Notes: generated from the letters alone by a model not told the origin. Shown: positions 49,893 to 57,187, numbered from the stretch's first letter. The stretch is DNA of 64,000 nt from an uncultured Eubacteriales bacterium (GCA_964584935.1 CAZPBN010000004.1:6507-70506), one strand, 5' to 3'. Made by a program: numbers and translations.

Positions 49893-51392
49893 TTACCCTT
49901 TAGCTCTTAAAAATTTATCCATTTCCTCTGCAGCAATTCTTCCATCACCCATAGCCAATATCACCGTCGCTCCTCCCCTGATGATATCCCCTCCAGCAAA
50001 AACACCTTCCATATTGGTCTTCATTGTATTCCAATCCACTTCGATATTCCCCCATTTCCCTGTTTTAATCTGAGGATTCGTTTGTGAAATCAAGGGATTT
50101 GGACTATTTCCAATGGCTACCACAGCCATATCTATATCCATTATGAATTCAGAGCCCTCTACAGGTACTGGCCGACGTCTCCCTGAATCATCGGGTTCAC
50201 CCAGTTCCATTTTCAGGCATTCCATCGCTTTAACAGTACCTTTATCATCTCCAATAAACCTCTTGGGAGTGGTTAAAAAATGAAATTCAATAGACTCCTC
50301 TTCAGCATGATGCACTTCTTCTTCTCTCGCTGGCATTTCAGCTCTGGAACGGCGGTAAACGATCGCTGATATTTCTGCTCCCAACCTTTTTGCTGTCCGT
50401 ACAGAATCTATGGCAACATTTCCTCCCCCCAGAACAGCCACTCTTTTCCCTCTCAATACAGGGGTATCATATTCAGGAAATTTGTATGCTTTCATAAGAT
50501 TCACTCTGCTTAAATATTCATTTGCCGAATAGATTCCAATCAGGTTTTCCCCTGGAATTCTCATAAATCTTGGTAATCCGGCACCGGTCCCAATAAAAAA
50601 TGTTTCATATCCGTCATCTCTCAGTTCCTTGAACGTGGCTGTTAAACCCACGATAAAATTTGTTTTTATTTCTACTCCTAATTTCTTAAGATAATCAACC
50701 TCGGCTTTTAAAATGTTTTTGGGTAATCTGAATTCCGGAATTCCATAAACAAGGACTCCCCCTTCAACATGAAGCGCTTCAAAAATTGTAACCTGATGGC
50801 CTTTTTTCGACAGTTCTCCGGCAACAGTAAGACCTGCGGGGCCTGCGCCAATAACAGCCACTTTATGACCGGTGGAATGAGGGATTTTTGGAATATGGAC
50901 TTTTTTATTCAATCTTTCGTAATCTGAAATAAATCTTTCCAAATTTCCTATTGCCACTGGAACTCCAGAGGCTTTGTTCAAATTACAGGTTTCTTCGCAC
51001 TGAGTCTCCTGAGGACAAACTCTCCCACAAATGGCAGGAAGACTATTTGTTTTCTTAATACTCCGGGCTCCGTTAACGAAATCTCCTTTTTCAATGAATT
51101 TTATAAAAGTCGGTATATCGATTCCCACCGGACATCCCAGGACACACTTTGGATTGGCACAATCAAGACATCTCATGGCTTCCTTCTGAGCCAGCTCAAC
51201 CATCAAACCGAGATTGACTTCATCAAAATCACAATTTCTCACTTCCGGATTCCGTTCCGGCATTTTCTGGCGTGGAATTTTCATTCTCTCTTTCACAGGA
51301 ACAGCTTTACGCAATTCCTTACGCCATTCTTTATTATATTCTGATTTGAGCCTTTCCTTGAGTTTATCATGCATTTTTTTTGTTTCAGCCAT
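49893..51392 (-). CDS. nfnB: NfnB / SudA / GltD-like large subunit (NADPH-binding, FAD, two [4Fe-4S]) of an NADH-dependent reduced ferredoxin:NADP+ oxidoreductase
   Basis: Two Cys clusters ([20 protein letters not shown]; [15 protein letters not shown]). Dinucleotide folds ([11 protein letters not shown]; [12 protein letters not shown]). Homology to the glutamate synthase small subunit. Confidence 0.85.
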
Positions 51393-51416
51393 TATTTTCT
51401 CTTTTAACTTATAGTC

Positions 51417-52253
51417 CTATGGGAAATTATTATCTTCCCAGTAACACAATGACTGGGTTTCATCCTTAAAGTAAGATTTTCTTCTCATGAACAATTCTTC
51501 CCAGTCTACTGAGTGGCCATCGAAATCTGGGCCATCAACGCAAGCAAATTTGGTCTTCCCCCCCACCGTGACTCGACAGGCGCCACACATTCCTGTCCCA
51601 TCCACCATTATAGGATTCAAACTCACAGTGGTCTTAATTCCATATGGTTTCGTTTCCCTTGAACATGAATACATCAAATAGGTGCATCCGATTGAAAAAA
51701 CATGGTCAATTTTTTTTTCTTTCTTAATGATTTCCTTCAATACTTTGGGAATATAATCCTTACAATTAAAATAGCTATCCCGCGAAGAAATAAAATATTT
51801 ATCACTTAGGGATTTCAATTTGTCTTCCCAATAAAGCAGGTAATGAGCTTTAACATCGACCAGAGTAATTATTTTATTACCAGCTTTTTTTAAAGCCCGG
51901 AGTACCGGAAAAATACCTCCTATTCCGTAGCAGCCACACGCACATAAAACAGTTCCATATTTTTTTATCTCTGTAGATTTCCCTAACGGCCCGACAAAGA
52001 CAGGGACGTCATCGCCTGCCTTCAAAAATGATAACTTGTGGGTGGAAGTTCCAACAACCATAAAAACAGATGTGATCGAGCCTTTTTCTCTATCCCAATC
52101 CGCAATAGTCAAGGGGACTCTTTCTCCTTTTTCATCGGGCATGATGATAACAAACTGTCCTGGTTGGCATTTTGAAGCAATTTCAGGAGCTTCAACTTCA
52201 ATCAGATAAATATTGGGAACTAATTTTTCTTTTCTCAGTATTTTATTCATCAA
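51417..52253 (-). CDS. nfnA: NfnA / SudB / PyrK-like small subunit (FAD, [2Fe-2S])
   Basis: Ferredoxin-NADP reductase-like fold (RVPLTIADWDREKG). C-terminal [2Fe-2S] motif GMCGACRV...C. The ATG overlaps the stop of the upstream nuoG-like gene (ATGA). Confidence 0.85.
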   Translation of the reverse strand: MMNKILRKEKLVPNIYLIEVEAPEIASKCQPGQFVIIMPDEKGERVPLTIADWDREKGSITSVFMVVGTSTHKLSFLKAGDDVPVFVGPLGKSTEIKKYGTVLCACGCYGIGGIFPVLRALKKAGNKIITLVDVKAHYLLYWEDKLKSLSDKYFISSRDSYFNCKDYIPKVLKEIIKKEKKIDHVFSIGCTYLMYSCSRETKPYGIKTTVSLNPIMVDGTGMCGACRVTVGGKTKFACVDGPDFDGHSVDWEELFMRRKSYFKDETQSLCYWEDNNFP

Positions 52254-56727: not shown

Positions 56728-56743
56728 TTCTTTCTATTATTGA

Positions 56744-57187
56744 TCACCTATGCTCATTTATAATTTTATCCACTTTGTTGATGTCAACATGAGAATAGTA
56801 TTCATCATTGACAACAACAACCGGTCCGATCGCACAACAACCCAGGCAATTCACTGTTTCAAGTGTAAATTTCTTATCAGGAGTTGTTTGATCAACCTTT
56901 ATGTCTAATTCTCTCTCCATTTCTTCCACAATATGAGGTGCTCCCCGAACGTGACAGGCTGTTCCCATGCACACTTTGACAATGTTTTTTCCTCTTGGTT
57001 CCAAATTAAATGCATTATAAAAAGTAAGGACTCCAAATATCTCACTCTCTGATATCTGGAGATGTTTTGAAATAGTGGAAACACTTTCAGGAGGAATATA
57101 CCCGTACTTCAACTGAACTTTATGAAGGATATGAATCAATTCCTTTTGTTCACCAGTAAACTCATCGAGAATTTCTTTCATACTCAT
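56744..57187 (-). CDS. NuoE-like [2Fe-2S] subunit (HydC/HndA-type)
   Basis: 147-aa thioredoxin-like fold with CMGTACHVRG...CLGCCAIGP. Confidence 0.85.
   Translation of the reverse strand: MSMKEILDEFTGEQKELIHILHKVQLKYGYIPPESVSTISKHLQISESEIFGVLTFYNAFNLEPRGKNIVKVCMGTACHVRGAPHIVEEMERELDIKVDQTTPDKKFTLETVNCLGCCAIGPVVVVNDEYYSHVDINKVDKIINEHR

Follow-up and report, generated by a model that had tools for sequence, protein, structure and literature searches.

A five-gene module joining a Bfu-type bifurcating core to a complete NfnSL pair: a candidate NAD(H)/NADP(H)/ferredoxin transhydrogenase with a decayed formate dehydrogenase-type subunit

We analysed a stretch of 64,000 nucleotides deposited under an uncultured Eubacteriales bacterium (GCA_964584935.1 CAZPBN010000004.1:6507-70506; this whole stretch is called the window below). 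Five genes on its minus strand, between positions 49893 and 57187, encode the subunits BfuC, BfuB and BfuA of a Bfu-type electron-bifurcating enzyme, followed by NfnS and NfnL, the two subunits of Nfn. This module, widespread and uncharacterised, is a new subunit composition of the Bfu/Nfn type. The reading that we prefer, with a probability of roughly 0.6, is that the five genes encode one soluble complex, BfuABC plus NfnSL, which would act as an NAD(H)/NADP(H)/ferredoxin transhydrogenase and would use a dead formate dehydrogenase (FDH) as a wire. Based on the sequences, it is quite likely that the five proteins form one complex, and the proposed transhydrogenase function and wiring, which lean on analogy with solved relatives, have about an even chance of being correct. 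The original prediction, which was made from the sequence of the window, had proposed one larger five-subunit complex. Conserved gene order, in-frame gene fusions and a distinct NfnS subfamily strongly support this idea, and it is from these gene-level signs that we infer the assembly itself.

The five genes and the bifurcating core

The original prediction described five minus-strand genes in the order nuoE-nuoF-nuoG-nfnA-nfnB, and the open reading frames lie exactly where it placed them, with domains that agree with these labels. The features are as follows.

56744..57187, minus strand: bfuC, NuoE/HydC-like, 147 amino acids, thioredoxin-like [2Fe-2S] subunit of the BfuBC core (PF01257, 174 bits, full length; NF005722 NuoE at cutoff)
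54811..56727, minus strand: bfuB, NuoF/HydB-like, 638 amino acids, flavin mononucleotide (FMN)/NAD(H) subunit (Pfam domains, PDB matches, Cys motifs)
52250..54814, minus strand: bfuA, NuoG/FdhA-like, 854 amino acids (Pfam, PDB matches, alignment with FdhF)
51417..52253, minus strand: nfnS, NfnA-like, 278 amino acids (NF004862, 362 bits; 5jca_S, 296 bits)
49893..51392, minus strand: nfnL, NfnB-like, 499 amino acids (TIGR01316, 607 bits; 5jca_L, 543 bits)
54811..54814, minus strand: ATGA stop/start overlap of bfuB and bfuA (read from the sequence)
52248..52253, minus strand: TTGATG stop/start overlap of bfuA and nfnS, with TGA as stop and TTG or ATG as start (read from the sequence)
57204..58310, minus strand: alaDH, alanine dehydrogenase (TIGR00518, 321 bits), 16 nucleotides upstream of bfuC

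The ATGA overlap expected at 54811..54814 is present, and so are gaps of 16 nucleotides between bfuC and bfuB and of 24 nucleotides between nfnS (nfnA) and nfnL (nfnB). A second ATGA overlap had been placed at 52250..52253; the coupling of the genes there is real, but the letters are TTGA, which is the sole error in that description. Because the local sequence reads TTGATG, nfnS starts either at the TTG at 52253, with a 4-nucleotide overlap, or at the ATG at 52250..52248, with a 1-nucleotide overlap, the form that is seen in the relatives L001 and L002. Both the overlap of bfuB with bfuA and that of bfuA with nfnS are kept in these relatives, which are about 50% identical. The subunit names BfuC, BfuB and BfuA follow the nomenclature of Schut et al. 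(2022; PMC9304861). The earlier label "complex I N-module-like NuoEFG" is correct for the domain types, which are those of NuoE, NuoF and NuoG, but BfuCBA is the better name.

All expected cofactor motifs are present in the five proteins. BfuC has four cysteines in the motifs C73-x4-C78 and C114-x3-C118, and the gene for this [2Fe-2S] subunit adjoins bfuB at a distance of 16 nucleotides, as is seen in the Bfu family. Pfam recognizes in BfuB the domains Complex1_51K (PF01512, 160 bits) and NADH_4Fe-4S (PF10589, 129 bits), to which are added an N-terminal thioredoxin-like [2Fe-2S] domain (PF01257, residues 21-101) and two C-terminal Fer4 domains (residues 562-612). Its motifs include C35...GCHGFCE, CVGCLLCKKSCP and CIKCGTCLDVCP, and both ESCGKCVPCR and SLCGLG, which bear on its N3-type [4Fe-4S] cluster, align with 7t2r_B. 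The latter, NiFe-HydB of Acetomicrobium mobile, is the best match among solved structures (826 bits over residues 28-610, about 65% identity by eye), and the B subunits of Stn/NfnABC and FeFe-HydABC (9n5u_B, 9bov_B and 7q4v_B) follow with 765 bits. The Cys motifs that were compared between BfuB and these solved B subunits are conserved. According to Schut et al. (2022; PMC9304861), the extra N-terminal [2Fe-2S] cluster and the two C-terminal [4Fe-4S] clusters set the bifurcating Bfu proteins apart from NuoF, HoxF and FdsB. Judged by its sequence, BfuB is the core subunit of a bifurcating Bfu enzyme, in agreement with the HydB/HndC architecture that had been predicted for it.

These results bear on another reading, in which the first three proteins would be a NuoEFG-type N-module that belongs to a respiratory complex I but is encoded away from nuoA-N, with nfnAB as an unrelated neighbour. 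NCBIfam indeed ranks NuoE, NuoF and NuoG highest, and split nuoEFG operons exist in genomes with an 11-subunit complex I, but the scores are below the equivalog cutoffs for both NuoF (TIGR01959, 511 against 559 bits) and NuoG (TIGR01973, 308 against 470 bits), non-bifurcating NuoF has neither the extra N-terminal nor the extra C-terminal clusters of BfuB, and NfnS is fused to BfuA in other lineages (see below). On account of the sub-cutoff scores and the extra BfuB clusters, we reject such an N-module as highly improbable. No nuo genes were found among the annotated open reading frames of the window.

The last two proteins are close homologues of the solved NfnSL enzymes, as had been predicted. 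NfnS belongs to NF004862 (sulfide/dihydroorotate dehydrogenase-like FAD/NAD-binding proteins, where FAD is flavin adenine dinucleotide; the NfnS/NfnA family) and consists of a FAD-binding barrel, a Rossmann domain and a C-terminal [2Fe-2S] domain. Its best solved match is the small subunit of Pyrococcus furiosus NfnI (5jca_S), and that of Thermotoga maritima follows with 238 bits. The best model for NfnL, TIGR01316, is named NADPH-dependent glutamate synthase (gltA); on the basis of its matches to 5jca_L and to 4ylf_B of T. maritima (538 bits), we read this protein as NfnL. All canonical NfnL motifs are retained, namely those for two [4Fe-4S] clusters, one of them with the Glu ligand (CPQExQCE), the Arg near FAD N5 and the motif for the 2'-phosphate of NADPH; CLDCA..C and YRRSR are among the sequences present.

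Gene order, gene fusions and a distinct NfnS

We scanned one genome per GTDB species for relatives of the module, which gave 537 confirmed relatives, and fetched the best 80 loci. A tblastn comparison with the five window proteins showed that, in nearly all of these loci that are long enough, the genes share one strand and follow the order C-B-A-NfnS-NfnL. It is found in Aminicenantes, Desulfobacterota, Thermodesulfobacteria, Nitrospirota, Dehalococcoidia (including Dehalococcoides mccartyi), Anaerolineae and Gemmatimonadota, and also in archaea, namely Asgard archaea, Thermoplasmatota, Bathyarchaeia and Methanomassiliicoccales. The flanks of the module differ between lineages (dozens of loci from about ten phyla), and no other partner gene recurs beside it. 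As the same order recurs in about ten phyla with different flanks, the arrangement is far beyond chance. Genome searches for the same synteny had been suggested as a check, and they found it across bacterial and archaeal phyla among unrelated flanks.

BfuA and NfnS are also found as one protein. A profile-free search with BfuA, combined with Pfam, gave in-frame BfuA::NfnS fusions of 1023-1080 amino acids (P0185, P0200 and P0246), one of them from a metagenome-assembled genome (MAG) of Promethearchaeia, and their C-terminal parts are 41-45% identical to the window NfnS over about 270 residues. With the Promethearchaeia fusion as the query, more than 100 fused protein clusters were obtained. Those of about 890-1095 amino acids are from Loki-/Promethearchaeota, Hel- and Thorarchaeota, and those of about 830 amino acids are from Syntrophales, Desulfobulbus, Hydrogenedentes and the isolate Desulfogranum japonicum. 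The fusion gene of D. japonicum and that of a Promethearchaeota contig each lie in a self-contained BfuC-BfuB-(BfuA::NfnS)-NfnL cluster with unrelated flanks. True in-frame fusions are present in 6 of the 80 loci (L004-L007, L010 and L013); scan matches that span residues 8-1068, from Thermoplasmatota and others, are joined adjacent genes and not fusions.

The NfnS protein itself differs from that of stand-alone Nfn. It retains the [2Fe-2S] motif GMCGACRV...FACVDGP and the FAD motif ERVPLT, but the canonical GGGxGxA loop and the DGSxGxKG motif are absent and it reads CACGCYGIGG and SSRDSYFNCKDY instead. The loop stretch CACGCYGIGG, with CGCYG of the GGC[YF]G type, is at residues 104-113 (51915..51944), and RDSYFNCKDY takes the place of DGSxGxKG at residues 156-167 (51753..51788); for Aminicenantes the replacement is written RDSYYxCK[DE]Y. 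A GGC[YF]G loop is present in 66 of the 68 Bfu-linked NfnS proteins, whereas all five free ones, which are the P. furiosus and T. maritima subunits and those of the extra unlinked pairs of three Thermoplasmatota loci, have GGGxGxA as well as DGSxGxKG. In a neighbour-joining tree, the Bfu-linked proteins form a clade that excludes the free ones. The changed motifs suggest that NfnS of Aminicenantes may have lost NAD(H) binding or may have changed its nucleotide specificity. In the three Thermoplasmatota loci (L014, L017 and L025), the free-type NfnAB pair with GGGxGxA is at about 2200..4800, a few kilobases upstream of the linked pair; the two pairs share a strand in L014 but not in L017 and L025. 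As a free-type pair is present near a Bfu-linked pair, these three genomes keep two kinds of Nfn subunits side by side.

Because of the fusions, the conserved order and the specialised NfnS, a physical association of BfuA with NfnS, and hence with NfnL, is far likelier than coincidental co-transcription. The alternative is that one operon encodes two independent enzymes, a stand-alone NfnSL and an orphan BfuABC whose partner (a NiFe-hydrogenase SL, a tungsten oxidoreductase (WOR) or a true FDH) is encoded elsewhere, and that they share a transcript solely because each of them handles NAD(H) and ferredoxin. It is known that NfnSL can work alone (PMC12018979), and NfnL is canonical in every motif and inseparable from free NfnL in the tree. 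The best PDB match of BfuB is the B subunit of NiFe-HydABCSL, and Imachi et al. give "FdhA-HydBC" and "NfnAB" as separate Asgard enzymes. Within Aminicenantes the synteny covers the entire neighbourhood beyond the five genes (alaDH, the module, a CoA-transferase, RNase HIII and AlaX), and this synteny taken alone says little about one complex. Several observations stand against two independent enzymes: fusions in more than 100 protein clusters, a module order that stays constant across phyla while the flanks change, a Bfu-linked NfnS with its own signature and clade, a separate free-type NfnAB beside the linked pair in Thermoplasmatota, and the lack of any other partner gene recurring beside the module. 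We therefore consider the two-enzyme explanation unlikely.

With respect to the neighbourhood of the module in the window, alaDH is directly upstream of bfuC, and the gap of 16 nucleotides contains an AAGGAG ribosome-binding site. The original prediction considered co-transcription with alaDH. The adjacency is real, but it is specific to Aminicenantes-type loci, where it is seen in all that are long enough and in no other lineage, and alaDH is outside the conserved module; the CoA-transferase is likewise confined to Aminicenantes-type loci. A promoter and terminator scan of the locus gave counts at the level of shuffled sequence, with one promoter-like site with a TG motif upstream of alaDH (58339..58367) and no terminator-like site at the gene junctions, both of which are weak evidence. 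In Aminicenantes, alaDH is probably the first gene of the same transcript. The nearest homologues of BfuA all come from MAGs of Candidatus Aminicenantes; one of them, a partial sequence, is 99% identical, and the others form a family at about 50%. We treat the window as part of an Aminicenantes genome. Ten further loci are titled "uncultured Eubacteriales" (L009, L037, L046, L052, L059, L068, L073, L075, L076 and L083) and one "Clostridia" (L036), and their module proteins, except BfuC and BfuA, are about 65-80% identical to those of the window. Most of the Eubacteriales-titled loci that are long enough show alaDH and/or CoA-transferase flanks (L076 is too short), and L036 shows the CoA-transferase only. 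The taxonomy given for these loci is probably wrong, and probably that of L036 as well.

The remainder of the window is ordinary chromosome with many peptidase and amino acid catabolism genes. Among them are a prolyl oligopeptidase (12141..14282), an aromatic amino acid (histidine) ammonia-lyase (15611..17140) and a C69 dipeptidase (27164..28822), which fit a lifestyle of peptide and amino acid fermentation. A cassette at 7187..11831 on the minus strand encodes LexA, a Y-family polymerase (IMS/ImuB-like) and a DnaE2-like protein (PHP, Pol III alpha, 887 amino acids), a typical SOS mutagenesis gene set.

Several single loci show additional genes. In Nitrospirota locus L039, pntAA-pntAB-pntB (2406-5345) are directly upstream of bfuC on the same strand, and L054 has a weak (27%) AlaDH/PNT-like tblastn match at the equivalent position. 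A glutamate dehydrogenase gene adjoins the module in a Promethearchaeota contig (L085:10327-11667), as alaDH does in Aminicenantes. In D. mccartyi (L080) an open reading frame of 164 amino acids without a Pfam match lies between bfuA and nfnS (10788-11282), and mutS follows nfnL. The Dehalococcoides Bfu cluster of Schut et al. is a different cluster from L080, as the POR genes associated with the former are absent from the latter. A GltD-like reading frame follows BfuB, or is fused to it, in L053 and L066, and in L048 and L067 an extra protein with a NuoG-like N-terminus and a GltD-like part (SfrB/Stn-like) is encoded between bfuA and nfnSL.

The decayed formate dehydrogenase-type subunit

BfuA contains the Pfam domains Fer2_4, NADH-G_4Fe-4S_3, Fer4_Nqo3, Molybdop_Fe4S4, Molybdopterin and Molydop_binding. 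Its cluster motifs are those of a [2Fe-2S] cluster (C33..C61), two ferredoxin-type [4Fe-4S] clusters and the MopB [4Fe-4S] cluster (C247, C250, C254 and C282), after which comes a degenerate molybdopterin domain, and residues 122-676 align with 7t2r_A. BfuA was aligned with Escherichia coli FdhF (from NC_000913; L003) and 80 relatives. At the columns of FdhF U140, H141 and R333, read against FdhF and the relatives with a Cys/Sec-His-Arg triad (Sec, selenocysteine), BfuA has Ser, Pro and Ala, and no Cys is present in the ligand region NSSVSISPF (residues 364-372). All four Cys of the MopB [4Fe-4S] cluster are retained. Considering the positions that are invariant in FdhF and eleven relatives with an intact triad, BfuA keeps 44% of 144 and has changed 56%, compared with 71% kept of the 42 in the N-terminal Fe-S region. 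The loss of the triad together with this decay rules out an active FDH. A hydrogenase is ruled out as well, as BfuA has no H-cluster domain: Pfam gave no match to the Fe-hydrogenase large subunit, and the NCBIfam hydrogenase models cover just the N-terminal Fe-S part (best stretch, residues 2-107). The predicted lack of both a Mo/W ligand and a [FeFe]-hydrogenase H-cluster is thus borne out by the alignment and the domain searches. The sequence most likely describes a formate dehydrogenase-type subunit with a decayed pterin site, which would serve as Fe-S wire and scaffold without a catalytic site. Because the FDH site is lost, BfuABC alone would be left without a third substrate.

The active site took different courses in the relatives. 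An intact Cys-His-Arg site together with NfnAB downstream is found in D. mccartyi (L080), Nitrospirota (L079), Ammonifex (L057) and several Dehalococcoidia; L064, L066 and L067 also combine Cys-His-Arg with NfnAB downstream. Four Dehalococcoidales loci (L030, L055, L058 and L063) have an in-frame TGA at the FdhF Sec140 column and encode probable selenocysteine FDHs; in L058 no NfnAB follows BfuA, and the other three loci end too soon to judge. In Aminicenantes, Desulfobacteraceae, Thermoplasmatota and Asgard archaea, the BfuA active site has decayed, in each case independently. The cap domain, or most of the MopB fold, is gone from the fused forms, and the archaeal and deltaproteobacterial versions that have shed these parts have kept the link to NfnSL; therefore, this link is independent of the pterin site. 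From these sequences, the module looks like an Fdh-type Bfu enzyme that has several times turned into a pure nucleotide/ferredoxin oxidoreductase.

Alternatively, BfuA may still be a metalloenzyme, with a Ser-ligated Mo/W-pterin (dimethyl sulfoxide reductase-type) or another site acting on a third substrate other than formate, and with NfnSL and BfuBC as alternative modules through which electrons enter and leave, an arrangement that has been proposed for NADP-linked formate dehydrogenases. The MopB fold is full-length and includes the cap domain (PF00384, 134 bits; PF01568, 40 bits), and the Ser-Pro at the U140/H141 columns is conserved among Aminicenantes proteins with about 50% identity. 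In other MopB enzymes, Mo can have a Ser ligand. The relatives from D. mccartyi, Nitrospirota and Ammonifex combine Cys-His-Arg with NfnAB, and Fdh3 of Thermococcus onnurineus is a characterised FDH with a NfnL-like NADP subunit (PMC8965080). Against this, more than half of the FDH-invariant positions have changed, neither His141 nor Arg333 is retained, the D. mccartyi homologue has Pfam MopB scores more than twice as high, and the forms that shed the cap or most of MopB are still linked to NfnSL. We regard a surviving metal site as quite improbable and return to BfuA as a wire.

A further feature of BfuA is a duplication of the NuoG His-type cluster motif at residues 93-134 (54413..54538), which reads HPxxCxxCx5C-x15-CxxCx5CELQ. 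The three additional Cys may bind an extra cluster or form a Zn site. HMMER places both halves on the single motif of Bacillus subtilis YjgC. The duplicated motif is common to all 80 relatives, including the Sec-type FDH relatives without NfnAB nearby, and because of the latter it is not a docking signature.

The searches also returned proteins with other architectures. P0349 (1229 amino acids) is a full-length Fdh-like::NfnS fusion with Cys-Asp-Lys at the triad. P0217 (1365 amino acids) has the Stn architecture (Fer2, GltD-like, NuoG/MopB) but its Cys-His-Arg site is intact, and it is a candidate for a single-chain, NADP-linked subunit of an FDH-Bfu enzyme; its domain order suggests that Stn-type proteins have their GltD-like domain inserted near the point of the duplicated motif. 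In P0128 (1405 amino acids) a BfuA-like part is followed by a second NuoG-type N-terminal Fe-S module (Fer2_4, NADH-G and Fer4_Nqo3); this is a tandem arrangement or else a gene fusion that has gone unrecognised.

Proposed complex, known relatives and meaning

In the proposed complex, BfuB and BfuC would be the conserved HydABC/Bfu core, in which FMN and Fe-S clusters form the "flavobicluster" that binds NAD(H) and ferredoxin. BfuA, with its decayed pterin site, would be the Fe-S wire and the docking platform. NfnL, with NADP(H), FAD and two [4Fe-4S] clusters, and the specialised NfnS, with FAD and [2Fe-2S], would replace the fused NfnL-like domain of Stn/NfnABC or occupy the place of the SL subunits in NiFe-HydABCSL. 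By homology with Stn, electrons would pass from the FAD of NfnL over its two [4Fe-4S] clusters and the cluster chain of BfuA to BfuBC, and NfnS would sit by the C-terminal part of BfuA, the place of its covalent fusion in other lineages. In net terms, NADP(H), NAD(H) and ferredoxin would exchange electrons reversibly, that is, the complex would be a transhydrogenase. In Aminicenantes, the likely role would be to balance NADH and reduced ferredoxin, from amino acid and pyruvate oxidation, against NADPH. Such a role in NAD(P)H balance fits with the pnt genes upstream of the module in Nitrospirota and with the adjoining amino acid dehydrogenases.

With NfnS present and an NfnL that belongs to the canonical bifurcating type, two bifurcation centres in series may exist in the complex. 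In its boldest form, this would be a two-stage machine in which the NfnL FAD and the BfuBC flavobicluster are connected through BfuA, and which would bridge Nfn and Stn in evolution and serve Asgard archaea and Dehalococcoidia as a core redox device. In one direction, NADPH oxidation would yield NADH at two sites and electrons well below the usual ferredoxin potential. In reverse, NADPH would be formed largely at the expense of NADH, with half of the ferredoxin that is normally needed; for example, 4 NADP+, 3 NADH and 2 reduced ferredoxins (one-electron) would be used instead of the usual 4, 2 and 4, a "gear-shifted" transhydrogenase. We consider this extended proposal rather doubtful.

Several points weigh against the single transhydrogenase complex that we favour. 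The query of the genome scan contained the NfnS part and not BfuC, BfuB or NfnL, and the ranking therefore favours loci in which NfnS follows BfuA. NfnL has the same motifs as the stand-alone bifurcating NfnL and is not separated from it in the neighbour-joining tree, and because it is thus indistinguishable, NfnSL could work on its own. The Ser-Pro at the ligand position of BfuA could retain a function, and formate may belong to the ancestral role of the module, as the Cys-His-Arg site is still intact in some relatives. A complex with NAD(H), NADP(H) and ferredoxin as its only substrates, and with two potential bifurcation sites, would have no obvious energetic gain over NfnSL alone. Finally, the physical assembly, wiring, direction and stoichiometry of the complex are deduced from evidence at the level of genes.

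The closest known system is Stn/NfnABC, the type 1 Nfn-Bfu of Sporomusa ovata (8OH5), Caldicellulosiruptor saccharolyticus (9N5U) and T. sibiricus. In that enzyme, NADPH electrons pass through the two [4Fe-4S] clusters of an inserted NfnL-like domain and the BfuA chain to BfuBC, where they are bifurcated to NAD+ and ferredoxin. The window module shares with it the extra clusters of BfuBC (765 bits to 9n5u_B and 9bov_B) and a catalytically dead Fdh-like BfuA domain (the Ser/Pro/Ala triad and the 44% retention in our case). It probably also shares the NfnL/GltD-type NADP(H)-FAD module that feeds the BfuA chain and a reaction among NADPH, NAD and ferredoxin. It differs in that NfnL is a separate canonical subunit, whereas in Stn the NfnL domain is inserted in BfuA, and in that NfnS is encoded right after bfuA, whereas Stn is stated to be without a NfnA homologue (Kumar et al. 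2023; PMC10482914). Pfam found no GltD-type domains (Fer4_20, Pyr_redox_2) in BfuA; these domains are on the separate 499-amino-acid protein. The absence of a GltD domain from BfuA and the presence of NfnS rule out membership of Stn/NfnABC itself. By analogy, the complex looks like an unfused Stn/NfnABC that kept NfnS. The canonical NfnSL/NfnAB enzymes of T. maritima (4YLF) and P. furiosus (NfnI, 5JCA) are similar in both subunits (543 and 296 bits), with the Fe-S, FAD and NADPH motifs of NfnL kept. The window-type nfnSL genes, however, are always linked to or fused with BfuCBA, whereas canonical Nfn has no HydBC homologue, and their NfnS has GGC[YF]G instead of GGGxGxA and, in Aminicenantes, RDSYYxCK[DE]Y instead of DGSxGxKG.

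Other relatives show how a non-catalytic NuoG-like BfuA can relay electrons from added subunits to BfuBC. This is the case in NiFe-HydABCSL and WorABCSL of A. mobile (types 3 and 2), the former containing the closest solved relative of the window BfuB and the chain 7t2r_A with which BfuA aligns; the added subunits here are NfnS and NfnL, which are themselves a known bifurcating enzyme, and not a hydrogenase or a tungsten oxidoreductase. SfrA has an FDH-like domain without a Mo ligand, and SfrAB is not known to contain a BfuBC core or NfnS. In this NADPH-dependent enzyme of Geobacter sulfurreducens, as in our module, a GltD-like protein (SfrB) is paired with a NuoG-like one (SfrA) (Kremp et al. 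2020). T. onnurineus Fdh3 (PMC8965080) combines a MopB FDH subunit with a NfnL-like NADP(H) flavoprotein and Fe-S subunits, a likeness that bears on the intact Cys-His-Arg relatives from D. mccartyi and Nitrospirota; its W site is active and it has neither BfuBC nor NfnS, whereas the site of the window BfuA is lost. In the class II benzoyl-CoA reductase Bam[(BC)2DEFGHI]2 (2026 preprint, 10.64898/2026.04.10.717634), structural work has shown a HydBC/Bfu-type module hard-wired to a second bifurcating module, which by analogy sets a precedent for hierarchical coupling. There, the second module is of the HdrA type and delivers its output to a tungsten benzoyl-CoA reductase, and the complex differs greatly in size and substrates.

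The original prediction spoke of an undescribed composition, and this holds in the open-access literature, where we found no paper in which BfuABC and NfnSL are described together as one unit. Kumar et al. (2023; PMC10482914) describe Stn without a NfnA homologue and Nfn without a HydBC homologue. Schut et al. (2022; PMC9304861) distinguish Bfu types 1-4 and give Nfn-Bfu as the fused type 1 only; no NfnSL-containing type is listed in the sections covered here, and Aminicenantes are absent from the supplement. Among the "StnC homologs" of Kremp et al. (2020) there is, without comment, an 898-amino-acid Ammonifex protein.

Nfn and Stn/NfnABC have been described as unrelated solutions that share no small or core subunits (PMC10482914), and the module holds both sets of parts, a HydBC-type BfuBC with a dead-FDH BfuA and a complete NfnSL. 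It is present in Asgard archaea, often with the BfuA::NfnS fusion, in Thermoplasmatota, D. mccartyi, sulfate reducers, syntrophs, Nitrospirota and Aminicenantes. If the five proteins are one enzyme, this would be a new subunit composition for the Bfu family and a plausible evolutionary intermediate between Nfn and Stn. It would also change metabolic reconstructions in which a "FdhA-HydBC formate dehydrogenase" and "NfnAB" are counted apart, even where the FDH site is dead. With cultured hosts such as D. japonicum and D. mccartyi, the module would then be a small and tractable system for studying how two bifurcation modules are coupled.

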